From: an uncultured Syntrophomonadaceae bacterium
GTDB lineage: Bacteria > Bacillota > Dethiobacteria > DTU022
Assembly (NCBI GenBank): GCA_964390725.1
Contig: CAYMIW010000008.1
Span: 13,829 to 77,828 of the forward strand
Reading direction: 5' to 3'
DNA length: 64,000 nt
The notes under the pieces are model-generated. The model saw only the letters and a list, made by a program, of their open reading frames with translations, did not search any database and was not told where the DNA came from. This document shows, in pieces, positions 12,734 to 64,000 of the stretch. The position numbers and the translations under genes are program-made. Position 1 is the first letter of the stretch. Every line of letters begins with the position of its first letter.

Positions 12734-12779
12734 ATACTGCTATACGAATAAAACCATAAATTGTGTCTGATTGAAATTA

Positions 12780-12803: not shown

Positions 12804-13713
12804 ATATCTTTTCAAGAAGTGCTTCTGCAAACAGGGCTGGATCAAAAGGAGCGAGATCATCAATCTTTTCACCGGTGCCGATATAACAAACCGGAATTCC
12901 AAGTTTATCCTGGATACCGATAATTATTCCACCACGAGCAGTACCATCCAGCTTTGTAAGGACAAGCCCATTCAAAGGAAGAGACTTGTTAAAATTTTCT
13001 GCCTGGGCCAGGGCGTTTTGGCCAGTTGTTGCATCAACTACCAGCATAACCTGATGTGGTGCACCGGGCATAGTCCGGTCTATAACACGGTAAATTTTAT
13101 TTAATTCTTCCATCAGGTTATATTTATTGTGCAAGCGACCGGCAGTGTCACCGATAAGAACATCCACATTCCTCGCCCTGGCTGAATTAACAGCATCAAA
13201 ATAAAGGGCGGAAGGGTCGGTGCCACTTTGTTGCTTAATAATATCCGCCCCACTTCTTTCTGCCCAAACCTCTAGTTGTTCAACAGCTGCTGCCCTAAAT
13301 GTATCACCGGCAACAAGCATTACTTTCTCACCCCTGGAACTGTAATGGTGAGCCAGTTTGCCGGCAGTTGTTGTTTTTCCGGATCCGTTTACCCCTACGA
13401 GAAGAATAACATAGGGTTTCTGGTTCAATCTGAGCGGAGGTTGAGTTTCTGAGAGCAATGCCTTGATATTATCTTTAAAGAGGGTTCCGAATTCATCCCT
13501 GTTTTTAATTTTACTGCAGGCAACCTTTTCTTTAAGCTGTTCAATAATTTTCATACTGGTTTCAATGCCCACATCGCCTGTTACCAAGATCTCCTCAAGC
13601 TCTTCATAAAATTTTTGATCGAGCTCACCATCTTTTAAAATAGCGTCCAGGCGGCTAATAAAACCATTTTTACTACGAGATAGACCGTTTTTAAATTTAT
13701 CTATCAGGCTCAT
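12802..13713 (-). CDS. ftsY: Signal recognition particle receptor FtsY
   Basis: 303 aa with the NG domain motifs GVNGSGKTTT and DTAGR. Confidence 0.93.
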   Translation of the reverse strand: MSLIDKFKNGLSRSKNGFISRLDAILKDGELDQKFYEELEEILVTGDVGIETSMKIIEQLKEKVACSKIKNRDEFGTLFKDNIKALLSETQPPLRLNQKPYVILLVGVNGSGKTTTAGKLAHHYSSRGEKVMLVAGDTFRAAAVEQLEVWAERSGADIIKQQSGTDPSALYFDAVNSARARNVDVLIGDTAGRLHNKYNLMEELNKIYRVIDRTMPGAPHQVMLVVDATTGQNALAQAENFNKSLPLNGLVLTKLDGTARGGIIIGIQDKLGIPVCYIGTGEKIDDLAPFDPALFAEALLEKI

Positions 13714-13719
13714 CTTTGT

Positions 13720-49132: not shown

Positions 49133-49207
49133 GCGCCTGTAGCTCAGGGGGAGAGCGCTTGCTTGACACGCAAGAGGCCCGTGGTTCAAAACCACGCAGG
49201 CGCACCA
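49133..49207 (+). tRNA. tRNA-Val (anticodon GAC) with encoded CCA
   Basis: Manual cloverleaf. Acceptor GCGCCTG/CAGGCGC, D stem GCTC/GAGC, anticodon stem CTTGC/GCAAG with loop TTGACAC (U33, GAC, A37), T arm CGTGG-TTCAAAA-CCACG, discriminator A, then CCA. Confidence 0.85.
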
Positions 49208-49263: not shown

Positions 49264-50607
49264 TTAGATCCGCCACATATCAGCAATATTATCGAAAGTC
49301 TCTACTTTACTGATTGATTGCAGCCAAGCTTCAATTTTTGAAGCCGGTAACAGTTTCGCTGATAAACGGCGAAATTTCGCATGCAGAGCATCAAGACCAA
49401 CTTTATTTTCCGGATCGCCCCGGGGAAAATCAGTTTGTTCGTGGTCAACAGTGCCGTTGCGTAAGATAACATTAAGCTTGGCTGCCCATTTCTGGGGGTA
49501 ATGTGCATCAAGCAGGGGATCAATTTCTACGGTGCAATGACTCATCAATTCTTCGAGTATTGGATCGTGCAGCCTTTCTTCCGTAAAATCATTTATTCCC
49601 ACGTGACCATATACCAGAGCGGTAGAAACACAAAATGGCAAACTAAACTTGGCCTCGTATATTGTTTCCGGGAATGGCTCACCAACTAGATCCCTTGCAA
49701 CTGAATAAGTTTGAATACGCAACAGCTCTATATCTTCCGGTTTAAGTCCCTTCTCCCTTAACCTCAACCCCAGGTCTATTGCCGCATGGGTATGACGGGT
49801 AGATGCATATAGCCTGAAGCTGATCTGCATGATCTTAAATTCGCTACCCAGACTTTCTACAATTTTTTCCATCTTTGCCTTGGGAGCAAAAACCCTCAGG
49901 AATCCTTTTTCCCCGGAGAGAATTGTTTTCGTGCTTGTATATCCTCCTGCAGCGAGCATTGCCGAAAACAGGCCATTCTGAGCTGCCTTACTGGCATGTA
50001 GAGGTTTACTCATCATCCCTTCGGGGCTGTAGTGCAGTTCCATCAACCCTGCCGCCTGGGTACCGGCATGTCCAAGGGCATAAATCAGCTGATCTTCATC
50101 GAGACCCATAACTTTTCCCGCAGCAATAGCAGCAGCGAAAGTTCCGCATGTCCCCGTTGTATGCCAGTAGTTATAGTGTGTAGGAGTCATAGCTTCAGCT
50201 ATGCGAATACCAACCTCGTAACCAACTACAATAGCAGTGATTAGATCTTTGCCCGAAGCGCCAACTTTTTCAGCTGCAGCAAGAGCAGCCGGTATGATCG
50301 GAGAGCCGGGGCGTAGAATTGAACTTCGATGAAGATCATCTAGTTCAAGAGAATGAGCGTAAAGACCATTGCCAAGAGCAGCATTTAATGCAGGCACCTT
50401 CTCTTTACGGCCAATTAAAACTGCCTGGGAAGAACCTCCCGCTTCTTCAATAATTTCTGTAACAACATGACCCGGTAAGGCAGTTGCCCCGGCGCAGGCT
50501 GCACCAACAAGATCAAGAAGGCATACCTTGGCCTGCTTTATCACTTCTTTAGGTAGTTTTTCATAACTAATTTCACGTGCAAACCTGGCCAGTTCCTGTT
50601 CTATCAT
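49264..50607 (-). CDS. MmgE/PrpD-family protein (2-methylcitrate dehydratase-like fold). Start moved to the internal MIEQELARF.
   Basis: N-terminal and C-terminal MmgE/PrpD regions (KVCLLDLVGAACAG...). It lies 65 nt downstream of the five-gene antiporter-like operon on the same strand. Confidence 0.75.
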   Translation of the reverse strand: MIEQELARFAREISYEKLPKEVIKQAKVCLLDLVGAACAGATALPGHVVTEIIEEAGGSSQAVLIGRKEKVPALNAALGNGLYAHSLELDDLHRSSILRPGSPIIPAALAAAEKVGASGKDLITAIVVGYEVGIRIAEAMTPTHYNYWHTTGTCGTFAAAIAAGKVMGLDEDQLIYALGHAGTQAAGLMELHYSPEGMMSKPLHASKAAQNGLFSAMLAAGGYTSTKTILSGEKGFLRVFAPKAKMEKIVESLGSEFKIMQISFRLYASTRHTHAAIDLGLRLREKGLKPEDIELLRIQTYSVARDLVGEPFPETIYEAKFSLPFCVSTALVYGHVGINDFTEERLHDPILEELMSHCTVEIDPLLDAHYPQKWAAKLNVILRNGTVDHEQTDFPRGDPENKVGLDALHAKFRRLSAKLLPASKIEAWLQSISKVETFDNIADMWRI

Positions 50608-50699
50608 GCGAATACTTCCCTTCTTTCTGAACATAAACTTACTGTTTCATTATTTATATATTCTTTTCGTACCTTTATACTCCTGCATCTGTATTACCT

Positions 50700-52883
50700 C
50701 TATGTAAAAAGATGGAGCGACATGATTATTATCAACATGATGAAAAAAACGAGCAGGTAATATTCAAAATTTGCAGTATTTACTAATAGATAAAATCGTC
50801 CCTCATGTTTGTAATCCAACTGAAACAAAAAGTTAAAAATACCCATAAAAAACTTCTTTGTAATAAGGAAAAAACGACGCAAAGCAAAAAGCCAGTACTG
50901 ATAGATATTGTTGAATAATCTCGATGAATATCTGGCCAGTTCACTAAATACTTCACTGTTGTTCTCCAAAGTGCTGATCCTGTAACTGAGCTTTTTTAAT
51001 GGGACCATGGTATCAACAACCAGGTAATCTGCTGACGAATCAAGAACCTTACCACCGATACAGTAATATTTTAGCAGGCAAGTACTTCTGATAAACCCTG
51101 TATCAACAGCATATTCCAGGGCTCTTCCGCTTCCTGTAAAGATTGCCTTGAAAAAGGCTACCAGCGGGCGGTAAACCAAGCTTTCTATACTCAGCCGCGC
51201 CGGTAACTTTATCTCAAATAATTTAAACCTCACGGCCAGGTAAAAGAATAATGCGGCAACAGCTACCACACCGGCCATACCCATCAGGTCGTGACTATCC
51301 CAAAAGTTAACTTTCAATAAATAATTATAATAGTATTCTTCAAAGTTAAATACCTGCACTACCGGAGCAACAATTTTTTTCAAAACCAGGAATGGGTTGG
51401 TTCCAATGAATAGTATAACCAGGCCGATGACAACAAATACAATTTTTTCATTCCAGGTTTCTTTACCTTTTACCTGGAGCTTGTCCGGTCTATGACCCAG
51501 GAATATTGAGCTAAACAGGCGGGCAATGTAACAGGTCGTCAAAACGCCTGTCAGCATAAAAATTCGTTCAGCCAAATAAAGGCTGTACTGTTGATGATGT
51601 TCAAAAGCTTCAACAATGGCATGGTGCAGCAACACCTTACTGGTATAACCATTTAACCCCGGTATACCGGCAATACCCATGGCCGCCAGTAGAAATACTA
51701 CTGCAGTGACCGGAAATTCACGCCAGAGACCACCCATTTTTTTTATATCAATTTCTCCCGTCCGGAAGTAAACAGCACCGACCATCATGAACATACCAGC
51801 CTTGAAAAAAGCATGGTTAACCACATGCAGGGTAAAACCGCCCATGGCCATGGGCCCTTCCAGCCCCAAATAAGCACAAACCCCAATTCCCATTAGAATA
51901 TAGCCCATCTGGCTCACGCTGCTGTATGCCAGTATTCTTTTTGCATTGGTCTGAAAAAGAGCAATAAATGCAGCAACAAACATAGTTAAAATTCCAAACC
52001 AGATGATGATGTAACCAAAGTGGGCAGTATATTCCCAGAGTGTTTTTACTTCAGCCTCTGCCGGGATAAAAAGGACATTCACAACACGCAATATGCCATA
52101 TGCTCCAGTTTTGATCATGATCCCTGAAAGAAGGGCACTGGCAGGTGACGGGGCCACCGGATGAGCTTTTGGTAACCAGATATGCAGGGGGACCATTCCA
52201 GCTTTTATCCCAAAACCGATAATTAACAATACAGCTATCACACTATGAAGAGGTATTCTGAGCAACGCTTCCAAAGACGGTGTTATTAAAACGGAACCGG
52301 TATACCAGTAGATAATTATAGAAGCAGTCAAAATGCAAAGACCGCCAAATATTCCCAAAAACAGGTATAGTTTGCCTGCGCTTGAAGCTTCCCCGGTCTG
52401 CGTGTGCACAACGAGCATATATGATGCTATTGACATCATTTCAAAAAAGAAAAATAGACTGAATAGGTCACCGGTTAAGAAAACGCCCAGGCAACCCCCC
52501 AGGGTTAACAAGTAAAAGGTATAATAACGATTTCTGCGTTTCTCATGGGTCATGTAGGAAAGAGAAAAAAGTGAAGCCAAAAACCAGATCAACGAAGATA
52601 AGAAATTAAAGAGAGCGCCAAGCCGGTCGACTTTAAAATACAGTGGGATATCACCAAAGCCAATCCTGTAATGGTTAACCACCACTTCTTCCCAGCTTCC
52701 ACGAAGCAGGATTAAAGAAAACAGACAAACCAAGCCAGTGAGCAAAACAACAAACCAGTCCCTGTACTTATCAGAAAACCTGCCAACAATAGCCGAAATC
52801 CCCGCCCCGGCTATGGGGATAAGTACAATTATCAGGGGCAAAAGGTTGACAACATGCTGATAACTTAACGGAGATTCATTCAT
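50700..52883 (-). CDS. NuoL/MrpA/MrpD-family proton-conducting antiporter-like subunit, long form (727 aa) with a ~230-aa C-terminal extension
   Basis: N-terminal ~480 aa carry the complex-I antiporter-module motifs (LHIWLPKAHPVAPSPASALLSG...TLHVVNHAFFKAGMF). The C-terminal extension has no recognised domain. Confidence 0.8.
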   Translation of the reverse strand: MNESPLSYQHVVNLLPLIIVLIPIAGAGISAIVGRFSDKYRDWFVVLLTGLVCLFSLILLRGSWEEVVVNHYRIGFGDIPLYFKVDRLGALFNFLSSLIWFLASLFSLSYMTHEKRRNRYYTFYLLTLGGCLGVFLTGDLFSLFFFFEMMSIASYMLVVHTQTGEASSAGKLYLFLGIFGGLCILTASIIIYWYTGSVLITPSLEALLRIPLHSVIAVLLIIGFGIKAGMVPLHIWLPKAHPVAPSPASALLSGIMIKTGAYGILRVVNVLFIPAEAEVKTLWEYTAHFGYIIIWFGILTMFVAAFIALFQTNAKRILAYSSVSQMGYILMGIGVCAYLGLEGPMAMGGFTLHVVNHAFFKAGMFMMVGAVYFRTGEIDIKKMGGLWREFPVTAVVFLLAAMGIAGIPGLNGYTSKVLLHHAIVEAFEHHQQYSLYLAERIFMLTGVLTTCYIARLFSSIFLGHRPDKLQVKGKETWNEKIVFVVIGLVILFIGTNPFLVLKKIVAPVVQVFNFEEYYYNYLLKVNFWDSHDLMGMAGVVAVAALFFYLAVRFKLFEIKLPARLSIESLVYRPLVAFFKAIFTGSGRALEYAVDTGFIRSTCLLKYYCIGGKVLDSSADYLVVDTMVPLKKLSYRISTLENNSEVFSELARYSSRLFNNIYQYWLFALRRFFLITKKFFMGIFNFLFQLDYKHEGRFYLLVNTANFEYYLLVFFIMLIIIMSLHLFT

Positions 52884-52967
52884 CGAACTGCTGCTCCCTC
52901 ATGCCAGATAATATGTTTGTTCAAACCGGCATTAAGTGCAATTATAGCTGAATAGACGGGAATTTGT

Positions 52968-54527
52968 CTACATGCTGAATAACGACCTTGCAGCTGCCAG
53001 GGCCAGCTCCCAGGCCCAGTTCACCGGCATCAGGGCAAAAGCAAAACAGCCGATAGCCAGTAAACCCATCGGTATAACCATGTGCCAGGGAGCCTCCAGA
53101 CCCAGCCTCCCACCGTAGCAGAGGTGATCATCCGCTTCCTGTCCATGATCATTTTCGCTACAACCATCATCAGTTACACTTTCGTGATCATGATGTGAAT
53201 CCTTCTCCCCGGGGAAAAATGCTGCAATGACAATTGGAAAATAGTAAGCAGCATTCAGCAGGCTGCTGACTATTAATATAGCGACAAAAACAGGCTGCCC
53301 TGCTTCCAGCGAAGCCAGCGAAAGCTGCCACTTGCTGATAAACCCGTTAAAAGGAGGTATTCCGACCATAGCTAAAGAGGCAATTGTGAAAAAGACCATG
53401 GTCAGGGGCATTTTAAGACCAATTCCTTTCATCTGACTTATATTGCGAATTCCTGTCCGGACAATAATTGCCCCGGCACATAAAAAGAGAAGCCCTTTCA
53501 TGAAAGCGTGAGTAAAAAGGTGATATAATCCACCGGTCAACCCACTCTGATTCAGCAGAAATATTCCAAGGATTATATAGCCGATCTGGGCGATGCTTGA
53601 ATAAGCCAAGCGTCGTTTTAAGTCATCCTGGAGCAGAGCCATGGCTGATCCCAATAAAATAGTAATCGCAGCAATAATTAGCATCACCGTGTCCCAGTTT
53701 GCCCTGCTGATGAAATCCGGGCTGTAAACATTAAAAATCACCCTGATCATTCCGTAAATACCGGTTTTAAGCATTATTCCGGAGAGAGCGGCACTGACCG
53801 GTGAAGGGGCAGCAGGGTGAGCATCCGGGAGCCAGACATGAACGGGAAACATCCCGGCTTTAAGACCAAAACCAAGCATAAAAGCCACGAAAGCAACTGT
53901 GGCTAACCCTGAAGGTTCAGTTATTAAACCGGGACGGGTAAAAACAACGGAACCGGTCAGATAAAAAGTTATCAGAAGGCCAAAAAATACCGACAGCCCA
54001 CCACCCACAGTCATGTACAAGTACTTGCCTGCAGCAAACATGGTAACCGGTGTTTCTTCATGGGCAATCAGTACGTAGGTGGTCAGGGCCATAAATTCGA
54101 AGAAAAGGAAGAGTCCAAGCAGGTCGCCGGCAAAAATGGTACCCATGCACCCGCCTTCAGCAAGAAGAAAGAAAGCGTAATATCGTTCCTTTTTATGTTC
54201 GTGGGCCATATAACCCGGTGAAAAACAGGCAGCCATAAACCAGACAAAGGAAAAAAATATACCAAGGAAAAATGTGAGCTGATCCACTTTAAATGATATC
54301 GAAAAGGGAAATGAAAAGTATTGGAATAACCCGAGCAGAATCTTCCCTTCCCTGATTGCCGGGTACATGCTGAGAACAAGTAAAAAAAACAGCCCCGTAA
54401 CCCCTATACAAATATACTCTTTATAGGAATATAACCTTTCTGAAAAAAAGAATAATAAAATACCGGAAATTATCGGTACAAAAATGATGATAGCCGGTAA
54501 AAAAGTATAAACAACCTCGTATTCCAA
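52968..54527 (-). CDS. NuoN/NuoM/MrpD-family antiporter-like subunit (519 aa) with a His/Asp-rich C-terminal loop
   Basis: VHVWLPDAHPAAPSPVSAALSG and HLFTHAFMKGLLFLCAG motifs. The C-terminus carries DSHHDHESVTDDGCSENDHGQEADDH. Confidence 0.85.
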   Translation of the reverse strand: MEYEVVYTFLPAIIIFVPIISGILLFFFSERLYSYKEYICIGVTGLFFLLVLSMYPAIREGKILLGLFQYFSFPFSISFKVDQLTFFLGIFFSFVWFMAACFSPGYMAHEHKKERYYAFFLLAEGGCMGTIFAGDLLGLFLFFEFMALTTYVLIAHEETPVTMFAAGKYLYMTVGGGLSVFFGLLITFYLTGSVVFTRPGLITEPSGLATVAFVAFMLGFGLKAGMFPVHVWLPDAHPAAPSPVSAALSGIMLKTGIYGMIRVIFNVYSPDFISRANWDTVMLIIAAITILLGSAMALLQDDLKRRLAYSSIAQIGYIILGIFLLNQSGLTGGLYHLFTHAFMKGLLFLCAGAIIVRTGIRNISQMKGIGLKMPLTMVFFTIASLAMVGIPPFNGFISKWQLSLASLEAGQPVFVAILIVSSLLNAAYYFPIVIAAFFPGEKDSHHDHESVTDDGCSENDHGQEADDHLCYGGRLGLEAPWHMVIPMGLLAIGCFAFALMPVNWAWELALAAARSLFSM

Positions 54528-54572
54528 AACAGCTCACCTCCGGTAAATATCAGGCGGCAATAAAACCCAACT

Positions 54573-56048
54573 CTAAAAATATAACTGAGCAATAGCCCTG
54601 GCCAAACTCAGTGGCCAGTTATAAGGCATAATGGTAAAAATAAATGCTCCGGCAGCAAAAATCAACAGCGGCACCATGCGCAATGGTTGCAGGCGTAATC
54701 TCTGCCGTTCTATATTTTGCAGCTCTCTGCACCCCAAAAAAGCATTAATCGAAATTGGAAAATAATAAGAAGCATTTAAAATACTGCTGAGAAGTAATAC
54801 CAGTATTATTGCCGGCATCCCAGCCTCAATGGCACCAAGTCCAAGATGCCATTTCGATACAAAAAGATTAAACGGCGGTATTCCAACAGAACTCACAGCA
54901 GCTATAGTAAAAGCCAGCATGGTAACCGGCATCTGCATACCAATACCTTTCATTTCACTGATTTTTGTTTTACCTGTATTAACATATATTACTCCGGCAC
55001 ATAAAAACATACAGCCCTTCATAAAGGCATGCGCCATTATATGGTAAACAGTACCAACCAAGGCCATTTCAGTTACCAGGGCTAACCCCAGTAAAATGTA
55101 GCCTACCTGGGCAATTCCAGAGTATGCTAACCGCCGGTTTAAATCATCCTGGGCAAAAGCACATATTGAACCATAAAGCATGCTGATTATAGCTAAAACC
55201 AGTAAAATGTTATTCCAGCCTGTTTCCTGGATAACAGTCAGACCAAAGATATCATGAAAAACCCTGATTAAACCAAGAACCCCTGTTTTTAGCATTATTA
55301 CCGAAGATATAGTAGCAGCCGGAGTAGGGGCAGCTGCATAAGCATCCGGCATCCAGATATGAAGTGGAATTACAGCTGATTTTATCCCGAAAGCAATCAG
55401 GTAACATACAAATGCTACTGCCAACACTGGTTCTCCCTCTGTAACAAGGCCACCCAAGCCAAAGGCCAGGCTGCCGGTAGTTGTATAAGTTATAACAACA
55501 GCCCAGAAAAGAGCCACCCCGGAGATTATTGTCATAAAGAAAAACTTCAAACCGGCTCTGTATGCCCCCGGGTTTGATTTATAGGCAACAAGTGGAACGA
55601 AGGAAAGCGACATCAACTCAAAGAAGAGAAAGAAAGTGAGCATATTACCACTCATTGAAACTCCCAGGCAACCACTGATGGCTATTAGCATGAAATAGAA
55701 AAATACTTTTCCTTCTTGTTTGTTTTTATAATAACCAATTGTATAGATAATGATTATGACACTTAAAAAAGAGAACAAAAGCAACATATACATGGACAAC
55801 AGGTCAATCCTGAATTCAATACCGGCAGGGGGCAGTAAATTAATTAGAAGGTAAACTATTTTGCCTGATGAAACACCGGGATACAGCAAAGCGGCAAACA
55901 AAAGTGGTAAAGTTACCGATCCGATGATGGCACCATTGCGCCATTCAGAACGGTAACGATCAGCAAACATCGCTCCCACTGCTCCAACCAGAGGAAACAG
56001 AAAAATCAGGGCTGGTATAATAGAGACTACGATTTGATTATGCTGCAA
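54573..56048 (-). CDS. NuoN/NuoM/MrpD-family antiporter-like subunit (491 aa)
   Basis: LHIWMPDAYAAAPTPAATISSV and HIMAHAFMKGCMFLCAG motifs. Confidence 0.85.
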   Translation of the reverse strand: MQHNQIVVSIIPALIFLFPLVGAVGAMFADRYRSEWRNGAIIGSVTLPLLFAALLYPGVSSGKIVYLLINLLPPAGIEFRIDLLSMYMLLLFSFLSVIIIIYTIGYYKNKQEGKVFFYFMLIAISGCLGVSMSGNMLTFFLFFELMSLSFVPLVAYKSNPGAYRAGLKFFFMTIISGVALFWAVVITYTTTGSLAFGLGGLVTEGEPVLAVAFVCYLIAFGIKSAVIPLHIWMPDAYAAAPTPAATISSVIMLKTGVLGLIRVFHDIFGLTVIQETGWNNILLVLAIISMLYGSICAFAQDDLNRRLAYSGIAQVGYILLGLALVTEMALVGTVYHIMAHAFMKGCMFLCAGVIYVNTGKTKISEMKGIGMQMPVTMLAFTIAAVSSVGIPPFNLFVSKWHLGLGAIEAGMPAIILVLLLSSILNASYYFPISINAFLGCRELQNIERQRLRLQPLRMVPLLIFAAGAFIFTIMPYNWPLSLARAIAQLYF

Positions 56049-56063
56049 CCACTATCACCCCTT

Positions 56064-57557
56064 TTACTGCGAAAATACGGATCTTACCACCGTTTCGATA
56101 AACGGAATACTGGTATGGTCGGCAAAAAGACCCAGGATAATTGCAAGCCCGGCTAGGATCAATGTTGGCACCAGCATGGTTAATGGTGCCTCATAACCAG
56201 GCTTCTTTACAAAGTCACCCTTCTTGAAAAAGGCATTTACAATAATCGGCAGATAATATATTGCATTAAGCAGCGTGCTGCCCAGGATAATATAACCATA
56301 AATTGGCATTCCGGATGCCAATGCTCCGGTTAAAATGTAATATTTGCTTACGTACCCCACAATTGGCGTAACGCCCATCAGGCCAAGCGCACCAATGGCA
56401 AAAGCCAGCATGGTCAGGGGCATCTGTCTGCCTATACCGTTCATCTGGTTTAAATCTTTCTTGCCGGTAACTGTTATGATCATTCCCGCACAAAAAAACA
56501 GGGTTATTTTTAGAATGGCGTGATTAATAATATGGATTAAACCACCAAGAGCACCTATCGGGTGGAGCATCAACACTCCAAGAGTAATATAACCCAGCTG
56601 CCCTATAGTTGAATAAGCAAGGCGCAGTTTTAAGACAGTCTGTTTTATCGCCATCAGTGACCCGACTATAATTGTAAAACAAACGAATACGGCCAAAACA
56701 TTAGTTACGTTAAGTCCGGATAATACTTCCGGGCTGTAGATAGAGAAGAAAACCCTGGCTATACCAAAAACTCCGGCTTTGACTATAGCAACAGCATGCA
56801 ATAAGGCACTGACCGGCGTCGGGGCAACCATAGCCCCGGGCAGCCAGGAGTGCAGCGGCATTAATGCCGCCTTGGTTCCAAAACCGGCAATCAGCAGGGC
56901 AAAAATAACTGTTATAAAAACGCTGTTCTCAGAGGCAACTGCGCTGAGAATTCCTCCAGGCATAAATTCAAGAGTTCCAACCAGATCATGAATCATAAAA
57001 ATTGATAAAAACACCAGGGCCCCACCGCCAAGGCTGTAACTGATATATTTAATTCCGGCTTTAACTGACTCTGGTGTTCCGGCATGCACAACCAGGGGAT
57101 AAGTACAAATGGCAAGATACTCGTAAAAAATATAAAAAGTAAAGAGATTACCGGCAAAAGCAACCCCCATGGCAGCGCTGCAGGATAAAACAAAAAAAAC
57201 AAAATAATTACGCTGGCTGTGTTCATGCTCCATGTAGCCAATCGAATAAACTGTGGCAAATATCCAGAGGGTGGAAGATACAATAGCAAATACCATACCC
57301 AGTGAATCAACTTTGAAGAATATTCCCAATCCGTCAAGGAAACTCAACACGCTAATCTGGATGTCTTCCCCAGCCATAACAGCAGGGAACATAGAAGCAA
57401 CTGCAATAAAAACTATAGATACGGTTACCAGAGATACCAGGTGCCGAAGGTTAGCTTTTTCTTCATCCAAAAAGCGAATGATTAAAGCACCGATAATTGG
57501 TATGACAACTGCAATTATTGGTTGTGGATAACCCAGGGTCAAGTAAATCTCCTCCAC
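56064..57557 (-). CDS. NuoN/NuoM/MrpD-family antiporter-like subunit (497 aa)
   Basis: LHSWLPGAMVAPTPVSALLHA and HIINHAILKITLFFCAG motifs. Confidence 0.85.
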   Translation of the reverse strand: MEEIYLTLGYPQPIIAVVIPIIGALIIRFLDEEKANLRHLVSLVTVSIVFIAVASMFPAVMAGEDIQISVLSFLDGLGIFFKVDSLGMVFAIVSSTLWIFATVYSIGYMEHEHSQRNYFVFFVLSCSAAMGVAFAGNLFTFYIFYEYLAICTYPLVVHAGTPESVKAGIKYISYSLGGGALVFLSIFMIHDLVGTLEFMPGGILSAVASENSVFITVIFALLIAGFGTKAALMPLHSWLPGAMVAPTPVSALLHAVAIVKAGVFGIARVFFSIYSPEVLSGLNVTNVLAVFVCFTIIVGSLMAIKQTVLKLRLAYSTIGQLGYITLGVLMLHPIGALGGLIHIINHAILKITLFFCAGMIITVTGKKDLNQMNGIGRQMPLTMLAFAIGALGLMGVTPIVGYVSKYYILTGALASGMPIYGYIILGSTLLNAIYYLPIIVNAFFKKGDFVKKPGYEAPLTMLVPTLILAGLAIILGLFADHTSIPFIETVVRSVFSQ

Positions 57558-57568
57558 TCAGATTAAAA

Positions 57569-59722
57569 CTATAGTAAAAACAACAGGCTGGTTGCCAGGA
57601 TAACACCGATCACTATTAAAACAATATATAAATCAAAATCAATGTTTGATATGTTAAAAGTCTGAAAGCGGCGGTCACCCCTGGTGCTGTAATCGAATTT
57701 AAACATTGCCATAAATATTTTTCGAAGGTAAGCGCCAGCCCTGCTAAATAATAGATTAATTATAACTAACCAGGACTCATGAATATAATTAAACATTGAA
57801 GACAACGTAATGATAAAAAAATAACCCATTCTATTAAAAAGGCGTGAATCAAGATCATCAGCACCACCAGCCGCCCGGACCAGCAGGGAAGGTGCTCCAT
57901 GAAATCCTTTATTCAGGTAATCATCTACAAACCTTCCTGCCCTGGTAAAGGTAAATCTTAAAACCTCGGTTGCAGGCCTGTAAAGTGTGTGTTCCACACT
58001 CAGGAAGTCAGGAGGCCTGATCAGGAATAAATCTTTCTTTCTGGCCAGCAGAAAAACAACAATCCCGATAAGCAATGCTATAATTATACCCATTAAATCA
58101 TCGATATTCCATACTATCGTCCTGGCAAGATAATTCACGTAATATTCGTTGTAAGTAAATACCGAAGACATGGGAACAATAATCTTATTAATGATCAAAT
58201 CCGGATTAAGGCCAAGGAATGTGATTATACCAATAAAGGATATGGCAATAAATCTCTCAATCAAGTTCTCCCCTGAATTATAATTTTCTATTTTTTTTGC
58301 ATTAACCGGTTTAATTTGTCCTCCAAAAATAGAAACAACCAGTTTGATTATATAGCATACCGTCAAGCCACTGGTTAACATAAACATCTTTTCGGCCGCC
58401 CAGAGATCCCAGAGGTGGTGGTGTTCAAAGGCTTCAACAATGGCATGGTGCAGTAAGGTTTTACTGACATAACCATTAAAGCCGGGAATACCTGTAATAC
58501 CGAAAGCGCAGACTAGAAAAGCGGTAAAAGTCAGTGGAAATTTTCGCCACAGCCCCCCTAACCTGTCCATATTCACTTCATGCAATCGTGTATAAATAAA
58601 ACCGAATAAAATAAAAAGTCCTGATTTGAAAAAGGCATGATTAATTATATGATAAGAAAAACCGCCAAAAGCCATGGCACCATCATACCCCAGGTAGCCT
58701 GCCGCACCGATACCCATTAAGATATAGCCCATCTGACTGATACTGCTGTAGGCAAGAAGCCTTTTGGCATTGTTTTGCAGTAAGGCCATCAGCGCCGCAA
58801 TAAACATGGTCAAAATACCCGCCCAGATAATAATATGACCCAGGTTTTCTGTAAAATGCCATAATGAGCTTTCAGCCATTTCACTTGTTGGACTATAGAG
58901 CATGGTTACTACCCGGATAATTCCATAAGCCCCGGTTTTAATCATAATACCGGAAAGCAAAGCACTCGCCGGCGCAGGTGCAACAGGATGAGCCTGGGGA
59001 AGCCAAATATGCAGGGGAATCATGCCCGCCTTTACCCCAAAACCGGCTATCATCAGCAGGGCAATCAGAGCAGCCTTGCCTCCGTCTGTCAGTAAAATCT
59101 GTGCCTGTTGAGTTATCGCTACTGAGCCTGTTACGCTGTTCAGTAATATAATTCCTGAAAGTAAAGCCAGTCCGCCGAGTAAACCCAGGTAAAGATAATT
59201 TGACCCTGCTTTTATTGCATCCGCAGTTTGATTATGAACAACAAGGGCATATGCAGCAAAAGTCATTAATTCAAAGAATAGAAAAAGACTCATGAAGTCG
59301 CCACACAAAAAAACACCTGCGCAGCCGCCAAGCGATAGAATTAAGAAAGTATAATAACGACCTTCCCTTAGATCTCCCCTTAAATAAGGCAGTGAAGCCA
59401 AAACAGCCAGCAACCAGATTAGCGCAGTAAAAAAAGTAAATACTGCGCCGGTCAGATCAACTCTCATAGAAACTGCCAGACCGGCTATGTCAGGAAGCCT
59501 GAACATTATGTTGTATCCCTGGAGAGCGAGCCGAAATAATTCAAAAGACAGGTAAAAGGTTAAGGTAGCAACAAATACGGCAATAACCTTTCCGCATGTT
59601 TTATTTCTCAAGCTCAATAAGCCAATGATCAACGACCCGATGATTGGTGTTAAAACAACAGCCAGGGGCAAGTAACTTACCATATATAGACCCTGTATCT
59701 GAATAATTAGGATATTTGCCAT
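57569..59722 (-). CDS. NuoL/MrpA/MrpD-family antiporter-like subunit, long form (717 aa from the internal MANILI start) with a ~230-aa C-terminal extension paralogous to that of 50700..52883
   Basis: LHIWLPQAHPVAPAPASALLSG and YHIINHAFFKSGLF motifs. C-terminal YRPATEVLRFTFTRAGRFVDDYLNKGF aligns with YRPLVAFFKAIFTGSGRALEYAVDTGF of the other long form. AGAGGGG RBS lies before the ATG at 59722. Confidence 0.8.
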   Translation of the reverse strand: MANILIIQIQGLYMVSYLPLAVVLTPIIGSLIIGLLSLRNKTCGKVIAVFVATLTFYLSFELFRLALQGYNIMFRLPDIAGLAVSMRVDLTGAVFTFFTALIWLLAVLASLPYLRGDLREGRYYTFLILSLGGCAGVFLCGDFMSLFLFFELMTFAAYALVVHNQTADAIKAGSNYLYLGLLGGLALLSGIILLNSVTGSVAITQQAQILLTDGGKAALIALLMIAGFGVKAGMIPLHIWLPQAHPVAPAPASALLSGIMIKTGAYGIIRVVTMLYSPTSEMAESSLWHFTENLGHIIIWAGILTMFIAALMALLQNNAKRLLAYSSISQMGYILMGIGAAGYLGYDGAMAFGGFSYHIINHAFFKSGLFILFGFIYTRLHEVNMDRLGGLWRKFPLTFTAFLVCAFGITGIPGFNGYVSKTLLHHAIVEAFEHHHLWDLWAAEKMFMLTSGLTVCYIIKLVVSIFGGQIKPVNAKKIENYNSGENLIERFIAISFIGIITFLGLNPDLIINKIIVPMSSVFTYNEYYVNYLARTIVWNIDDLMGIIIALLIGIVVFLLARKKDLFLIRPPDFLSVEHTLYRPATEVLRFTFTRAGRFVDDYLNKGFHGAPSLLVRAAGGADDLDSRLFNRMGYFFIITLSSMFNYIHESWLVIINLLFSRAGAYLRKIFMAMFKFDYSTRGDRRFQTFNISNIDFDLYIVLIVIGVILATSLLFLL

Positions 59723-60037
59723 GAATAAACCCCTCTGAATTTTTCTGAAACATGTATATGAAACAGTCAAACATTTATTCTCTCCGAACAACCGATTTCC
59801 TGCCTGTGAGAATGTTTTTATGCAACAATTCAATAAATAAATATGATATGAAAAACAACTTGACAGGAAAGCAAAAATGGTAAAAAATAAACAGGATAAG
59901 TTGTTGTTTTTTTGCTTTTATCATTTTTTTAAACCACGATTTCTATTCGTGATGTATTTTTTTGTTTTTTTATTGTGAATACATTAACTTGTTTAATATG
60001 CTTTTATAGTAAATGATTTATTAGTTGTGCAACAAAT

Positions 60038-60463
60038 ATGGGCTTGGGAAAGGAGGAGACAGAAGAAGTGCATGATTATGTTACAAGGGTTGTTTTTCGT
60101 TATATGCTTCTTTTTGTTCTTCTTTACGGGGCATATGTGATTATGCATGGCCACCTCTCGCCCGGAGGGGGTTTTTCGGGCGGAATGATCATCGGTTTGG
60201 GTCTTCTGCTGTACATTCTTATATTCGGGCAGCTGTGGAACGACAGCTTCAGGCAGATGATTATTGATGCCACGATTATTTTTGTTGGTATCGGAGGTAT
60301 ACTTGAGGTGTCAAAATTCTTAATTCCCCATGAACACGGACCTATAGGAGTTACAGGCACCTTATTTAGCGTGGGGATTATATCCGTTGCCAATTTCGGG
60401 ATAGGGGTTCTAGTGGCGAGCACCATCATTGCCATATATTACATGATCAGTGAGGAGGCCTAG
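60038..60463 (+). CDS. MnhB/MrpB-like small membrane subunit
   Basis: 141 aa with the HGHLSPGGGFSGGMIIG motif typical of the MnhB domain. The start is uncertain: ATG 60038 has no RBS; GTG 60068 follows AAGGAGGA. Confidence 0.7.
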   Translation: MGLGKEETEEVHDYVTRVVFRYMLLFVLLYGAYVIMHGHLSPGGGFSGGMIIGLGLLLYILIFGQLWNDSFRQMIIDATIIFVGIGGILEVSKFLIPHEHGPIGVTGTLFSVGIISVANFGIGVLVASTIIAIYYMISEEA

Positions 60464-60465
60464 CC

Positions 60466-60825
60466 GTGGATCTTGAGTTGCTCTATATGAATTTTCCTTA
60501 TTTTGTTGCAATCATACTTTTTTCGATGGGCACCCTGATTGTTCTAACTCAAACCAACCTGATTAAAAAAATTATCGGTATAAACATATTGCAAAGTGCA
60601 ATTTTTCTTTTTTTTATAACCGTTGGAAATATTCATGGCGGAGTTCCCCCCATTTATGATCCTAATCTCACCGACGTTCTCTATATCAACCCGCTTCCTT
60701 CAACTTTAATGCTGACAGGAATCGTGGTCAGTTTCAGTGTTACAGCATTTGCACTTGCATTAATTGTAAAACTCTATCTTTTTTATGGAACTATCTGTGC
60801 TCCTAACTTTATGAAATTGAAGTAG
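60466..60825 (+). CDS. mrpC: MrpC/NuoK-like small membrane subunit
   Basis: 119 aa, 3 TM helices. It resembles NuoK/MnhC. GTG start is preceded by GAGGAGG. Confidence 0.75.
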   Translation: MDLELLYMNFPYFVAIILFSMGTLIVLTQTNLIKKIIGINILQSAIFLFFITVGNIHGGVPPIYDPNLTDVLYINPLPSTLMLTGIVVSFSVTAFALALIVKLYLFYGTICAPNFMKLK

Positions 60826-60840
60826 AGGTGAACCCCTGAG

Positions 60841-62367
60841 ATGGTATCGGTGTTGAAACTGCCTTTTTTATGTATCATTGGTACTTTAATAGCTGCATTC
60901 TGTATGCCTGTTTTAGCGAGATGGAAAAGAAATTTATGTGCTCCGCTGGCAACTTTTGTTACGGGCATAGTTTTTATAACCACTATTGTTATTGCATACC
61001 ATGTAATGAACGGTGAACCGATTCGTTATGCAGTTTCAGGCTGGGCCCCCCCCTGGGGGATTGAGCTTGTTGTCGAATCTCTTTCAAGCATGATGCTAAT
61101 GCTGATCGCGGGCATTTGCTTTTTAATTCTTATTTACTCTTTTTCCGCCGTAAAACATGAAATGGAAAGCAATATCATCGGCTGGTATTATACTGCTTTT
61201 CTTATAACCATGGCCGGCATGATGGGCCTGATTGTATCCAACGACATTTTTAACTTTTATGTTTTTATAGAGGTCACCGGAATTGGTGCCTGCTCGCTGG
61301 TTGCAGCAAAAGGAACCCGTCAGGCTACTGAAGCCGCCCTTAAGTACCTCTTGCTGGCAACAATAGGATCCGGCTTTATTCTGTTTGGGATCGGTTTTAT
61401 TTATATGATCACCGGACACCTAAACCTAACCTTTATTGCGGCTGAATTGGCTGAAGTAAAAGATTCTTACCCCTTCCTGATTTGGACTGCACTCAGTTTC
61501 TTTACTGTTGGTTTTGGGGTTAAATCTGCTCTCTTCCCACTGCATCTCTGGCTTCCAGATGCTCACTCATCGGCTGCATCTCCTTCAAGTGCGGTTCTCT
61601 CAAGTCTCGTGGTTAAAGTTTACATAATTGCCTTTTTAAAAATATTATTCATTGCCTTTGGGTTAGATATATTTCATGAGACTTTTATCCGTCATTTGAT
61701 CATAATCCTATCAGTTATCGCGATGCTGGCCGGTTCTTTCTTTGCTTTTGTTCAGATCGAATTGAAAAGACGCCTGGCTTATTCAACCGTTGCCCAGGTT
61801 GGTTATGTATTTCTCGGCATCGGACTGGGCACACCCTGGGGTCTGGCAGCCGGCATGCTTCACATTGTTGTTCATGCTTTTATGAAAACCTGTCTCTTCC
61901 TTACAGCCGGAGCTTTTTATTATCAGACCGGAATTAAAAAGGTAAACCAGTTTGCCGGGATGGGTTACAAGATGCCTATAACTATGGGTGCATTTACTAT
62001 AGCCGCCTTATCCATGGTCGGAATACCTCTTTTGGGCGGTTTCATCAGTAAATATGGGCTGGCTCTTGGAAGCCTGGAAGCTAATCTTCCCCTGGTTATT
62101 GTTGTAATCATAATTAGCGGCCTGCTCAATGCAACTTATTACTTTCCTATTATTGGTCAGGCATATTTTTCACAGGAAGAAGCAGATGGCCATCATGATC
62201 AAAACAGTCACGGGCATAGTGGGGAAGCTAAAAAGTTTAAACTTGACCAGGTGCCCCTGAGCATGCTTGTTCCGATCGTTATCCTGGCCCTGGGAGTAAT
62301 CTATTTGGGAATATTCCCCGGTATTTTGCTCAACTTTATCAATAAAACAGTAACAGCCCTGCTATAA
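60841..62367 (+). CDS. MrpD/NuoN-family antiporter-like subunit (508 aa), the sixth paralog, with a His-rich C-terminal loop
   Basis: LHLWLPDAHSSAASPSSAVLSS and HIVVHAFMKTCLFLTAG motifs. The C-terminus carries DGHHDQNSHGHSGE. Confidence 0.85.
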   Translation: MVSVLKLPFLCIIGTLIAAFCMPVLARWKRNLCAPLATFVTGIVFITTIVIAYHVMNGEPIRYAVSGWAPPWGIELVVESLSSMMLMLIAGICFLILIYSFSAVKHEMESNIIGWYYTAFLITMAGMMGLIVSNDIFNFYVFIEVTGIGACSLVAAKGTRQATEAALKYLLLATIGSGFILFGIGFIYMITGHLNLTFIAAELAEVKDSYPFLIWTALSFFTVGFGVKSALFPLHLWLPDAHSSAASPSSAVLSSLVVKVYIIAFLKILFIAFGLDIFHETFIRHLIIILSVIAMLAGSFFAFVQIELKRRLAYSTVAQVGYVFLGIGLGTPWGLAAGMLHIVVHAFMKTCLFLTAGAFYYQTGIKKVNQFAGMGYKMPITMGAFTIAALSMVGIPLLGGFISKYGLALGSLEANLPLVIVVIIISGLLNATYYFPIIGQAYFSQEEADGHHDQNSHGHSGEAKKFKLDQVPLSMLVPIVILALGVIYLGIFPGILLNFINKTVTALL

Positions 62368-62391
62368 CAAAGCAGGTTGGAGGTGATCACC

Positions 62392-62907
62392 ATGCTTGAT
62401 AGAATGAAAAACGATGTGATGGGCTCAATGTTCATCTTTACCTTGATGATGGCTTTTTGGTTGCTAATATCGGCAAGCGTGCACTGGCAGCATATTCTGG
62501 CTGGAGCAGTGTTCAGTATTATCCTAACCTTATTCTGGAGCAACCTGCATATATCTTCAGAACATGTAACAAACTTTACAATCAGGCAAGGCTATTTACT
62601 ATTTAAATACTTTATTAAGCTGGGAATCGAAGTAGTTATCGCTAATATAAATGTAGCCATGATAGTCCTGAATCCCAAACTACCCATTTCACCGGGTATC
62701 GTAATCATGCGCTGCGATTTGGAACGTGCACTGCTCAGGGTATTGTATGTAAACTCAATTACTCTTACGCCTGGCACTATAACAGTTGAACTTGAAGATA
62801 ACTTGCTTATAGTGCACGCCCTGACAGAGGACGTTGCCCACGGAATTGAAGATTGGGAGCTTAACCGCAGGCTGATGGAAATGGAGGCCTTATACAAAAA
62901 TGATTAA
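62392..62907 (+). CDS. mrpE: Na+/H+ antiporter subunit E (MrpE/MnhE)
   Basis: MnhE-like sequence (two N-terminal TM helices, ...TLTPGTITVELEDNLLIVHAL). ATG at 62392 follows GGAGGTGA. Confidence 0.8.
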   Translation: MLDRMKNDVMGSMFIFTLMMAFWLLISASVHWQHILAGAVFSIILTLFWSNLHISSEHVTNFTIRQGYLLFKYFIKLGIEVVIANINVAMIVLNPKLPISPGIVIMRCDLERALLRVLYVNSITLTPGTITVELEDNLLIVHALTEDVAHGIEDWELNRRLMEMEALYKND

Positions 62908-63166
62908 CACAGTCCTTTACATTATAGTTATCGGTCAAATCTTGTTTTCTCTGCTGGCTATCCTAAGAGCTTACAGTGGGCCTACGGTGCTGGACAGGGT
63001 TGTAGCCATGAATGTTATCACTACAAACGTCGTTATTATTCTTTTAATCTTTGCTTTCATAGATAACAGCTATTACTATATAGATGTAGCATTTGTCTTC
63101 GTCCTCGGTTCATTTATCGGAACGCTTTGTATTCTGAAATTGCTTCGCGAGGGGCACATTATTTAG
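62900..63166 (+). CDS. mrpF: Na+/H+ antiporter subunit F (MrpF/MnhF)
   Basis: 88 aa with the LRAYSGPTVLDRVVAMNVITTNVVIILLIF motif. Confidence 0.8.
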   Translation: MINTVLYIIVIGQILFSLLAILRAYSGPTVLDRVVAMNVITTNVVIILLIFAFIDNSYYYIDVAFVFVLGSFIGTLCILKLLREGHII

Positions 63167-63177
63167 AGGTGATCAGT

Positions 63178-63570
63178 ATGGTTTATGAATATATTGCTAT
63201 ATTTTTTCTTTTTGGCGGTTTTTTCTTCCTTGTCGTCGGGGTGCTTGGTCTGATCAGGCTGCCTGATGTATACACGCGTATGCATGCGTTAGGCAAATGC
63301 GATACCCTTGGCACAGGTATGGTTTTAATCGGACTCATGCTGTTGGTTCGCGATGTCACTAACATTACTAAACTTATACTTATTATGGCAATGATTATTA
63401 CAATAAACCCTGTCGTAACCCACCTTATAGCAAAAACGGCTTACAACAGGGGTACCCCAATGGTAGAAGGAAGTTATGTTATTAACGATTATGTTGCTTC
63501 GCAACGCCGCAGGAGAAAAAGTCAGGTGGATAGCAAGCTTTCCCAGGAAGGGGGAGAAAAGCTGAAGTGA
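63178..63570 (+). CDS. mrpG: Na+/H+ antiporter subunit G (MrpG/MnhG). Start at the internal MVYEYI.
   Basis: GVLGLIRLPDVYTRMHALGKCDTLG motif. AGAGGTGA RBS lies before the ATG at 63178. Confidence 0.8.
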   Translation: MVYEYIAIFFLFGGFFFLVVGVLGLIRLPDVYTRMHALGKCDTLGTGMVLIGLMLLVRDVTNITKLILIMAMIITINPVVTHLIAKTAYNRGTPMVEGSYVINDYVASQRRRRKSQVDSKLSQEGGEKLK

Positions 63571-63806
63571 TAGATTTACTAATTGTATTAATGCTGTTAA
63601 TTTTAATCGCCACCACCCTTTCAATATTTATTTTTAATGATCTGCTATATATTGCGATCATTTTTGGTGCATACAGCATGGTTATGTCATTAATCTGGCA
63701 GCAGTTAAACTCGCCCGATTTAGCCATTACGGAAGCCGCGGTTGGAATCGGGATGACAGTTTTAATGGTAACCGTGGTCACCAAGGTTGGGAGGCGTCCG
63801 CAATAA
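63567..63806 (+). CDS. DUF4040 / MrpA-C-terminal-like (MbhD-like) small membrane subunit
   Basis: 79 aa, 3 TM helices. It resembles the DUF4040 domain found N-terminal to the MnhB region in MrpA and as separate MbhD-type proteins. Confidence 0.55.
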   Translation: MIDLLIVLMLLILIATTLSIFIFNDLLYIAIIFGAYSMVMSLIWQQLNSPDLAITEAAVGIGMTVLMVTVVTKVGRRPQ

Positions 63807-64000
63807 TGAGCACAAAAAGAATTATTTTTTATGCGATGTCAGTTGTTCTTGTTACATTGATTTCGTTTATGCTAATGCTGGCTGTGACTGAAATGCCGGT
63901 TTACGGAAATTTAGATAACCCTACCAATAACATGGTTTACGAAAGATATGTTAACAAGAGCGTTGAAGAAAGCGGCGGCACAAACATCGTGGCTAATATT
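63806..64000 (+). CDS. MnhB-like small membrane subunit, 3'-truncated by the window end
   Basis: ATG at 63806 and an open frame to the window end. MSTKRIIFYAMSVVLVTLISFMLMLAVTEMPVYGNLDNPTNNMVYERYVNKSVEESGGTNIVANI resembles the start of MrpB/MbhE proteins. Not in the ORF track, because no stop codon lies in the window. Confidence 0.5.
   Translation, partial: MSTKRIIFYAMSVVLVTLISFMLMLAVTEMPVYGNLDNPTNNMVYERYVNKSVEESGGTNIVANI

Follow-up and report, generated by a model that had tools for sequence, protein, structure and literature searches.

A five-gene operon of antiporter-like subunits without small subunits beside a three-module Mrp operon in an uncultured Syntrophomonadaceae bacterium

Membrane subunits that resemble antiporters and carry a PF00361 (Proton_antipo_M) domain are found in several described systems. 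Group 1 Mrp antiporters (B. pseudofirmus, 7qru; A. flavithermus, 6z16) contain one MrpD and one MrpA, in which the N-terminal core, the lateral helix, and the C-terminal domain are fused. Group 3, or irregular, Mrp clusters carry duplicated D and B genes; examples are cyanobacterial mrpCD1D2EFGAB, mrpFGBCDDAE of Microbacterium TS-1, and the cluster of Natranaerobius thermophilus with three mrpB genes (PMC5703873). MBH (membrane-bound hydrogenase) and MBS (membrane-bound sulfane reductase) of Pyrococcus furiosus (6cfw, 6u8y; PMC7684303, PMC8165549) have one and two antiporter-like subunits, respectively. Complex I variants with extra pumps, namely Nitrospira '2M', the rhizobial 'green' type, and Complex_I_3 of Ca. 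Manganitrophaceae with five pumping subunits, are described in PMC9040806 (citing Chadwick et al. 2018). DAB (DabA/DabB) and the cyanobacterial CUP-NDH-1, which belong neither to canonical Mrp nor to complex I, combine one or two PF00361 subunits, coupled to cation flow, with a carbonic-anhydrase-like partner. Here, we analyzed a stretch of 64,000 nt from an uncultured Syntrophomonadaceae bacterium (contig CAYMIW010000008.1; the whole stretch is referred to as the window). Its last part contains an Mrp operon on the plus strand and, divergently oriented on the minus strand, an array of five antiporter-like genes, m1 to m5. This operon of five antiporter-like subunits without small subunits is the unusual element of the locus.

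All five minus-strand open reading frames (ORFs) are intact, and PF00361 matches each of them over its full length with E-values of 1e-56 to 1e-66. The gene order is A-L-D-D-A (the letters denote the subunit classes described below), the intergenic gaps are 84, 45, 15, and 11-26 nt, and no small ORFs lie between the genes. The initial annotation had recognized this tandem of five paralogs with gaps of 11-84 nt correctly. Genes for MrpB, MrpC, MrpE, MrpF, MrpG, or MrpA's C-terminal domain were not found within the array, and because it lacks small-subunit genes, the array was not classified as an Mrp antiporter in its own right. The ORF of m1 (57569-59833) is over-long. The true start is almost certainly the ATG at 59722, which is preceded by the ribosome-binding site AGAGGGG and yields a protein of 717 aa, the length also given by gene callers on identical contigs and by the orthologs.

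The last plus-strand gene is cut by the end of the window, and the locus was therefore followed on other contigs. Genes for the MrpD-type protein pD (508 aa) occur on 11 public contigs, of which two (L099 and L100, of 141 kb and 226 kb; loci used for comparison carry the prefix L) had 0 mismatches to window positions 50841-64000 and, being 100% identical over 13,160 nt, were regarded as the window's own genome. Past position 64000, they encode MbhE (111 aa) followed by two further PF00361 proteins, D2 (493 aa, L-core type) and pA (665 aa, A-type with a lateral helix). The plus strand thus carries a complete 10-gene Mbh-like or "group 3" Mrp operon with three modules, in the order B-C-D-E-F-G-MbhD-MbhE-L-A. 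The six paralogs counted in the initial annotation are correct for the window; as the identical contigs continue with D2 and the A gene, the whole locus contains eight antiporter-like genes. The operon has the full set of Mrp small subunits (PF04039, PF00420, PF01899, PF04066, PF03334, PF13244, PF20501), and by its gene content it would encode an Mrp cation/proton antiporter. The DUF4040 protein MbhD represents the first piece of the MrpA C-terminal domain; it could be aligned to MbhD (6cfw_D) and MbsD (6u8y_D), and the glutamate of the motif PDLAITE56AAVG is kept. The second piece of that domain is the cut gene. It had been regarded as another MnhB-like gene and carries a 'subunit B' label in some models, but it is of the MbhE type, and its full-length copy contains PF20501. 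The Mbh-style splitting of the small subunits, with separate MbhD, MbhE, and MnhB genes, was confirmed.

At position 38, where Bacillus MrpF has a conserved Asp, the MrpF of the locus contains Asn, as an alignment without gaps to 7qru_F, 6cfw_B, and 6u8y_B shows. This exchange is typical of the class, since 34 of 35 MrpF homologs from multi-module Mrp operons have Asn at this position, whereas MbhB and MbsB retain Asp. Asn38 may reflect a different ion specificity or entry route.

The split small subunits, together with the fact that MbhH (6cfw_H) is the closest solved homolog of the large subunits, would also be expected if the cluster were the membrane arm of an Mbh/Mbx/Fpo/Hyf-type respiratory complex with its peripheral-arm genes just past the window. 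However, the own genome continues with MbhE, D2, and the A gene; beyond them lie two terminator-like hairpins within 175 nt and then a convergent operon for RnfD-like, RnfC-like, 4Fe-4S, and molybdopterin oxidoreductase proteins. Neither NuoB/C/D/H/I nor [NiFe] hydrogenase large or small subunits nor formate dehydrogenase (FdhF) are encoded in either operon, in the scanned window ORFs, or within 10 kb beyond the end of the window, in agreement with the initial annotation, which had seen no peripheral-arm genes. A NuoH-like PF00146 gene is absent from the locus; one is present in the metagenomic operon L020. The scanned window ORFs encode housekeeping functions (SMC, Ffh, PheT, ThrS, MutS2, PBP1, TrkH, a GTPase, MmgE/PrpD). 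As the contig extension contradicts it, the respiratory-arm interpretation was rejected as very improbable.

Compared with group 3 Mrp clusters, the plus operon is similar in that it has every Mrp subunit type and duplicated D-type genes, distributes the functions of MrpB and the MrpA C-terminal domain over several small genes, and comes from an alkaliphile/halophile setting. It differs in having three modules, in carrying the lateral helix on an MbhH/HyfB-like subunit while the MrpA-type core resides on a separate, helix-less subunit, and in the replacement of Asp38 in MrpF. The 'mrp' operon of Dethiobacter alkaliphilus, with 11 genes (PMC5609068), fits only the plus operon, and the five-gene array has no counterpart in the described group 3 clusters. 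With group 1 Mrp, the locus shares the superfamily, the fold, the Lys/Glu/His proton axis, and the DUF4040 glutamate, but it spreads the functions over more genes and has Asn in place of the group 1 MrpF Asp38. MBH and MBS contain the closest solved homologs of the locus proteins (MbhH for the large subunits, MbhB/MbsB for MrpF, MbhD/MbsD for the DUF4040 protein) and have the split small-subunit layout in common with the plus operon, but the locus has no hydrogenase or sulfane-reductase arm (no equivalents of MbhJ-N), and its antiporter-like subunits number three plus five. With the complex I variants, the array would share the multiplication of modules in one chain (the array chain being proposed), the number of five modules, and a lateral helix that grows by about 26 aa per module. 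Those variants, however, are redox-driven and have full Q and N modules and NuoA/H/J/K, whereas the array has neither a redox arm nor connecting small subunits and contains two lateral-helix subunits. A carbonic-anhydrase-like partner as in DAB and CUP is not encoded at or near the array: DabA/DUF2309 or CupA/ChpY genes do not flank it in the window, in L017, or in L099. The annotated view that the locus lies beyond textbook Mrp architecture therefore holds against Bacillus-type Mrp, but Mrp operons with three or four antiporter-like genes are common in metagenomes, and group 3 clusters have been published (PMC5703873).

Table 1. Positions of the array genes, the plus-strand genes, and the region between them in the window
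Feature	Position	Strand	Product and evidence
m1	57569..59722	-	first array gene, A-type, 717 aa; PF00361 5.8e-60
m2	56064-57557	-	L-core-type, 497 aa (gene callers' start 57542, 492 aa); PF00361 1.8e-56
m3	54573-56048	-	MrpD-type, 491 aa; PF00361 6e-61
m4	52968-54527	-	MrpD-type, 519 aa; PF00361 3.8e-66; key residues present
m5	50700-52883	-	last array gene, second A-type, 727 aa; PF00361 2.3e-60
Divergent intergenic region	59723..60037	.	AT-rich; alignment of 10 orthologous intergenic regions and promoter scan
MrpB/MnhB-like	60038-60463	+	small subunit, 141 aa; PF04039 2.2e-17
MrpC/NuoK-like	60466-60825	+	small subunit, 119 aa; PF00420 3.3e-19; NCBIfam 'antiporter subunit C' models
pD	60841-62367	+	MrpD-type, 508 aa; PF00361 6.4e-61; best NCBIfam PRK12662 (subunit D), PRK08377
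MrpE	62392-62907	+	171 aa; PF01899 8e-30; start as on identical contigs
MrpF	62900-63166	+	88 aa; PF04066
MrpG	63178-63570	+	130 aa; PF03334 1.2e-26; start as on identical contigs
MbhD/DUF4040	63567-63806	+	79 aa; PF13244 1e-12
MbhE-type	63806-64000	+	cut by window end; NCBIfam PRK12507/PRK12504 (MrpB/DUF4040-type); PF20501 in full-length copy

The eight antiporter-like subunits fall into three classes, and their mutual identities are low (32-49% between paralogs), so that the duplications must be old. The A-type comprises m1, m5, and pA, which are 40-47% identical and have insertions in common. Their core has an M/N/D-type sequence at transmembrane helices (TM) 7-8 (AHPVAPxPASALLSGIMIKTG), and the best match among solved structures is MbhH. 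It is followed by a C-terminal extension in which a long amphipathic helical connector links TM15 to TM16; m1, accordingly, consists of an MbhH/HyfB/MbsH-like core, TM15, a long lateral-helix connector, and TM16. The L-core class is represented by m2 and D2, which are 48% identical and have no lateral helix. Its TM7-TM8 signature is that of NuoL/ND5/NdhF/MrpA, WLPxAM.APTPVSALLHAVAIVK, with a His six residues ahead of the TM8 lysine, and this position corresponds to the His248 'switch' of MrpA (PMC9568556). In m2, the signature reads WLPGAM.APTPVSALLH254AVAIVK260, and its alignment counterpart in NdhF is 'WLPDAMEGPTPISALIHA'. The D-type genes m3, m4, and pD encode proteins of 35-40% mutual identity. 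Each of the eight paralogs has the TM5 Glu, TM7 Lys, TM8 Lys, TM11 His/Lys, and TM12 Lys, as in m3 with E144, K223, K254, H340/K344, and K399, so that the residue check proposed in the initial annotation (TM7 Lys/Glu, TM12 Lys) turned out positive throughout. Each of the two gene sets contains exactly one MrpA/NuoL-type subunit with the TM8 His.

A His-rich motif, LLHHAIVEAFEHHH, follows the TM12 lysine in the A-type. The segment directly after this lysine, LLHHAIVEAFEHH(H/Q), comprises residues ~418-432 of m5 (window 51600-51650) and is also found in m1 and pA. H420 and H421 are invariant in 70 sequences, and the segment is absent from the D- and L-types; it might act as a proton antenna or bind a metal. 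In addition, m4 contains a His/Asp/Glu-rich loop, EKDSHHDHESVTDDGCSENDHGQEADDHLCYGG, ahead of the last TM helix (residues ~465-510; window 53000-53130), and a similar loop, QEEADGHHDQNSHGHSGE, is found in pD. Both are candidate loops that could bind metal or protons.

The lateral helices of m1 and m5 were characterized by structure prediction with AlphaFold2. A canonical fold was predicted for both proteins (pLDDT 80.2 and 82.6, respectively), with TM15 at 540-562, helices at 576-608, 613-618, and 621-678, and TM16 at 694-716 in m1, and with TM15 at 530-552, helices at 566-624, 626-640, and 644-691, and TM16 at 708-726 in m5. The helical connectors thus comprise about 103 residues in m1 and about 126 residues in m5, the longest in the array. 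The top Foldseek matches of m5 were the lateral-helix-bearing subunits MrpA (best), NuoL, NdhF, HycC, and MbsH, over 590-745 columns. For a comparison of many operons, the length of the extension was measured from the alignment column of m5 Asp532, which is Asp or Asn in most sequences and lies just before TM15, to the C-terminus. A hydropathy-based measure of the gap between TM15 and TM16 had been dropped because amphipathic helix segments were picked as TM. The extension lengthens with the number of modules in related operons: the median is 151 aa in operons with two D genes and one A gene, 173.5 aa (range 106-241) with three D genes and one A gene (n=36), and 214 aa in L020 with four D genes and one A gene. 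The direction agrees with the increment of ~26 aa per added subunit reported for complex I variants (PMC9040806). The values are 130 aa for pA, 176 aa for m1, and 196 aa for m5, and the m1 and m5 orthologs of the L017 array have 175 and 199 aa. It is suggestive only, but on this scale the connectors of m1 and m5 might each be able to span three or four neighbors, which would be enough for a clamp around five subunits.

Selection on the genes was quantified by the ratio of nonsynonymous to synonymous substitution rates (dN/dS) in comparison with a relative that is 94% identical at the anchor gene, an uncultured Syntrophomonadaceae metagenome-assembled genome (MAG) with an identical layout of the locus. 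The ratios were 0.10, 0.05, 0.07, 0.05, and 0.09 for m1 to m5, with dS of ~1, and 0.01-0.03 for the plus-strand genes (0.03 for pD). The five-gene array is thus under purifying selection. The divergent arrangement of array and Mrp operon was found in at least 10 MAG loci of 58-94% identity, many of them recovered from sediment of soda lakes.

The array and the Mrp operon are two separable units, and each of the five array positions represents an ancient orthologous lineage. MAG288 (GCA_040751775.1) carries the ten-gene plus operon, without the array, beside folate-biosynthesis genes (L016), and the five-gene array (705-489-500-508-732 aa) is located on another contig (L017), flanked by Tat and FdhE genes on one side and by a two-component system on the other. 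Its genes are orthologous one-to-one to those of the window with identities of 48-68% (68% for m2, 51% for m3, 59% for m4, 51% for m5). Because the unlinked array has position-by-position orthologs, the array is an old, portable operon with specialized positions. The single 'supercluster' of the initial annotation is hence better described as two units.

Several relatives deviate from the common layout. In L003 (1260-1950), m5 is a frameshifted N-terminal fragment joined to the last ~70 codons, and m1 to m4 are intact; m5 seems dispensable in this lineage, unless the remnant is an artefact of the MAG assembly. An m5 frameshift in L012 was rejected as a sign of decay because it turned out to be only a run of N. 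In L018 (1-19025), about three tandem copies of an (A, L, D, D) unit recur every ~6.87 kb; they are 94-97% identical at the nucleotide level, and several are frameshifted. No small subunits are encoded within 22 kb. These repeats represent either a recent amplification or a long-read assembly artefact. In a UBA993 MAG (L015:3644-4500), MbhE is the last gene of the Mrp operon, tRNA genes come next, and L- and A-type genes are missing; either a core version with one antiporter-like (D) gene exists, or the large genes have been relocated. Taken together, the variants in L003, L018, and UBA993 suggest that large subunits have been gained and lost as modules around a core of small subunits.

The m5 remnant in L003 and the frameshifted copies in L018 are what would be expected if the five minus-strand genes were redundant, decaying duplicates of Mrp large subunits without a function of their own. 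However, dN/dS is 0.05-0.10 in all five genes, the ORFs are intact with every functional residue kept, the paralogs are only 32-49% identical, and position-specific orthologs persist down to 48-68% identity. Decay, which the initial annotation had named as a possible refutation, is hardly credible in view of the dN/dS values and residue conservation, and this reading was rejected.

Tentatively, we favor the reading that the array is an auxiliary multi-module H+-conducting arm that serves Na+/H+ homeostasis under haloalkaline conditions, probably together with the Mrp small-subunit core. The five subunits would form one linear membrane chain of ~74 TM helices, which the long lateral helices of m1 and m5 would clamp as NuoL or MrpA clamp their neighbors. 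A clear connection to the outside exists only in the MrpA/NuoL-type subunit of Mrp and complex I (PMC7419157), and protons would accordingly be predicted to enter through m2, the single subunit with the TM8 His, and to travel along the central Lys/Glu/His axis. In the least certain step, the array might dock to the Mrp small-subunit core or share it as an extra H+ arm. Such a role is proposed because the array has no Na+ site or module of its own; the Na+ path is formed by the MrpA C-terminal domain, MrpF, and MrpG (PMC9568556). As a consequence, more H+ would be taken up per Na+ expelled. Antiporters of alkaliphiles must be electrogenic, with more H+ than Na+ (PMC7419157). At the pH of soda lakes and with an inverted pH gradient, a lower membrane potential would then suffice to acidify the cytoplasm: according to our calculation, the potential required against the inverted gradient scales with n/(n-1) for n H+ per Na+, so that more modules would help at pH ~10. 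The array may explain how anaerobes living on little energy keep their cytoplasm acidic relative to a soda lake. The small-subunit core with one D gene in UBA993 adds a point of modularity in favor of the auxiliary arm.

Several observations weigh against an auxiliary arm. No observation shows the array in physical contact with the small subunits of Mrp, the two units are unlinked in MAG288, and m5 has apparently been lost in the L003 lineage. No regulatory motif is common to the unlinked L017 array and the L016 Mrp operon, which at that distance is uninformative. The lateral helix of pA is of ordinary length, and the plus-strand complex therefore looks self-sufficient. The MrpF of this complex lacks Asp38, the residue used for Na+ entry in Bacillus models, which makes the ion specificity of the neighboring Mrp uncertain. 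The confidence of the AlphaFold2 connectors is only 50-80, so that a straight and a folded-back connector are both possible, and the length 'ruler' is noisy, with 106-241 aa for three D genes and one A gene. The longest extensions (238-241 aa) are found in stand-alone pairs of one D and one A gene, and the number of subunits spanned is therefore not fixed by length. Finally, an MrpA-type entry subunit and clamps of its own fit an autonomous complex equally well.

Such a complex would be a cation/proton transporter without small subunits, in which one or more subunits conduct Na+ or K+ and the others H+, with coupling along the central charged axis and the two lateral helices holding the chain together. 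We consider this doubtful but nearly as likely as the auxiliary arm. It is in accordance with the portability of the array in MAG288 and with its self-contained composition, which combines two D-type subunits with two clamps and one MrpA-type entry subunit. The tandem unit of L018 lacks small subunits nearby, and DAB is an example of PF00361 proteins that function outside Mrp and complex I. Furthermore, a module of one D gene (~490 aa) and one A gene (~765 aa, with a very long C-terminal extension) without small subunits occurs in unrelated contexts: it directly follows a complete RnfCDGEAB operon in L021 (4430-13771) and penicillin-binding-protein genes in L024 (5017-8223), and was also found in L019 (2-2917). 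The D and A genes of these pairs are closest to m4 and m5, and m4, conversely, is nearest to the D gene in all three loci. Several points argue against autonomy. In most lineages, the array has stayed next to the Mrp operon, all five array proteins have the canonical proton-path residues without an obvious Na+-channel substitution, and we know of no Mrp-family transporter that has been shown to work without small subunits, although no search aimed at such a case was made. In addition, the array lacks the parts of the Na+ path, i.e. the MrpA C-terminal domain, MrpF, and MrpG (PMC9568556, PMC7419157).

It is conceivable, though doubtful, that the array forms an autonomous complex of ~320 kDa made of antiporter-like subunits only and held by two long lateral-helix clamps or, in a related version, that it docks to the three-module Mrp, so that a chain of eight modules with a very high H+/Na+ ratio, tuned to pH ~10, would result. 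If true, the autonomous complex would be a new class in the Mrp/complex I superfamily, a working transporter without NuoK/J-, MrpE/F/G-, or redox-type partners. How antiporter-like subunits are coupled to each other and to the driving reaction is a central open question for complex I, Mrp, and membrane-bound hydrogenases. A complex of antiporter-like subunits only would be a minimal system that could reveal whether a chain of modules moves ions alone, which role lateral helices play if nothing else needs to be clamped, and whether the number of modules sets the H+/Na+ stoichiometry.

The convergent operon past the plus-strand genes (L099:16999-21527, ~3 kb past the window end; also L001:17008-21523) encodes a molybdopterin oxidoreductase of 804 aa, a Fer4_11 4Fe-4S protein, and the RnfC- and RnfD-like proteins. 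It lacks RnfG/E/A/B and is syntenic in at least 8 relatives. RnfC and RnfD would be an unusual membrane or electron-input module for an enzyme of the dimethyl sulfoxide reductase family.

The array could also be the membrane module that translocates ions for an enzyme whose genes lie elsewhere, be it the RnfC/RnfD/Fe-S/Mo oxidoreductase, Rnf, or a DabA-like partner, and would then couple the reaction of this enzyme to ion flow. The synteny of the Mo/Rnf-like operon in the relatives and its presence in the window's own genome would be in line with this, as would the Tat and FdhE genes beside L017, the position of a D+A pair right after RnfCDGEAB in L021, and the service of A-type relatives in redox complexes such as the complex-I-like L020 with five antiporter-like genes. 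However, the Mo/Rnf-like operon is convergent to the plus operon and separated from it by the 175 nt with two hairpins, it lies ~17 kb from the array across the Mrp operon, and it is absent beside both the L017 array and the L016 Mrp operon. The array lacks NuoH/J/K-type connecting subunits, and DabA/DUF2309 was not found in the scanned window ORFs or in the checked array loci. A dedicated partner enzyme is thus improbable, and the auxiliary H+ arm of Mrp remains our tentative choice.

To place the locus in a wider context, 80 further, more distant metagenomic loci were fetched with the A-type alignment as query and mapped. The commonest layout, from gut, digester, and sediment metagenomes, was MrpE-F-G-MbhD-MbhE/B-C followed by D-L-L-A with four modules, and three-module Mrp operons were also found. 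Because operons with three or four modules are common in metagenomes and irregular 'group 3' clusters have been published, the plus operon is an ordinary member of a widespread, little-studied Mrp class. Among the loci surveyed, the five-gene array without small subunits occurred only in Dethiobacteria-like loci. No description of such an array was found in the literature searched, which is weak evidence as subscription journals are poorly covered. Its homologs go by generic names alone, for example 'multicomponent Na+:H+ antiporter subunit D', 'hydrogenase-4 component B', or 'proton-conducting transporter membrane subunit', so that homologous loci are not already annotated as a characterized complex, and no cultured organisms are among the best 120 homologs of m5 or m2.

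Two of the surveyed loci, L023 (11273-15537) and L025 (~9782-14040; 705 and 707 aa), contain two tandem A-type genes in one Mrp operon with a full set of small subunits; each has a short extension of ~122 aa. The complex-I-like operon L020 (244-13744) encodes NuoD, NuoH, a fusion of a GltD-like NAD(P)H oxidoreductase with a 2x[4Fe-4S] protein (GltD/NuoI), NuoJ, and NuoK, followed by five antiporter-like genes in the order D-D-D-L-A with an A protein of 755 aa. Five pumping modules have been called unique to Ca. Manganitrophaceae in a recent paper; the multi-module Mrp operons and the five-module L020 in public metagenomes put this claim in context.

The divergent intergenic region contains a conserved predicted sigma-70-type promoter of the plus operon, CTTGACAG-N17-TAAAAAAT, at ~59860-59888. 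Downstream of it, at ~59965-60005, lies a conserved leader block of 37 nt, TATTGTGAAT..AACTTG..TAAAT.., and a further conserved block, GGCAGGAAAT..AGAGAATAAA on the minus strand, is located upstream of m1 at ~59770-59800. The Rfam scan gave a tRNA gene (49133-49204) as its sole match, without a riboswitch or known RNA, and the consensus of the leader block had 0 predicted pairs and hence no conserved RNA structure. As the block has neither an Rfam family nor a conserved structure, it is probably a binding site of a regulator. The tRNA gene is encoded on the plus strand just downstream of the array. Between the two, a gene of the MmgE/PrpD family (49264-50634) follows m5 on the minus strand and is syntenic in L003 and L102; because it is only 65 nt away, has the same orientation, and is syntenic, it may be co-transcribed with the array.

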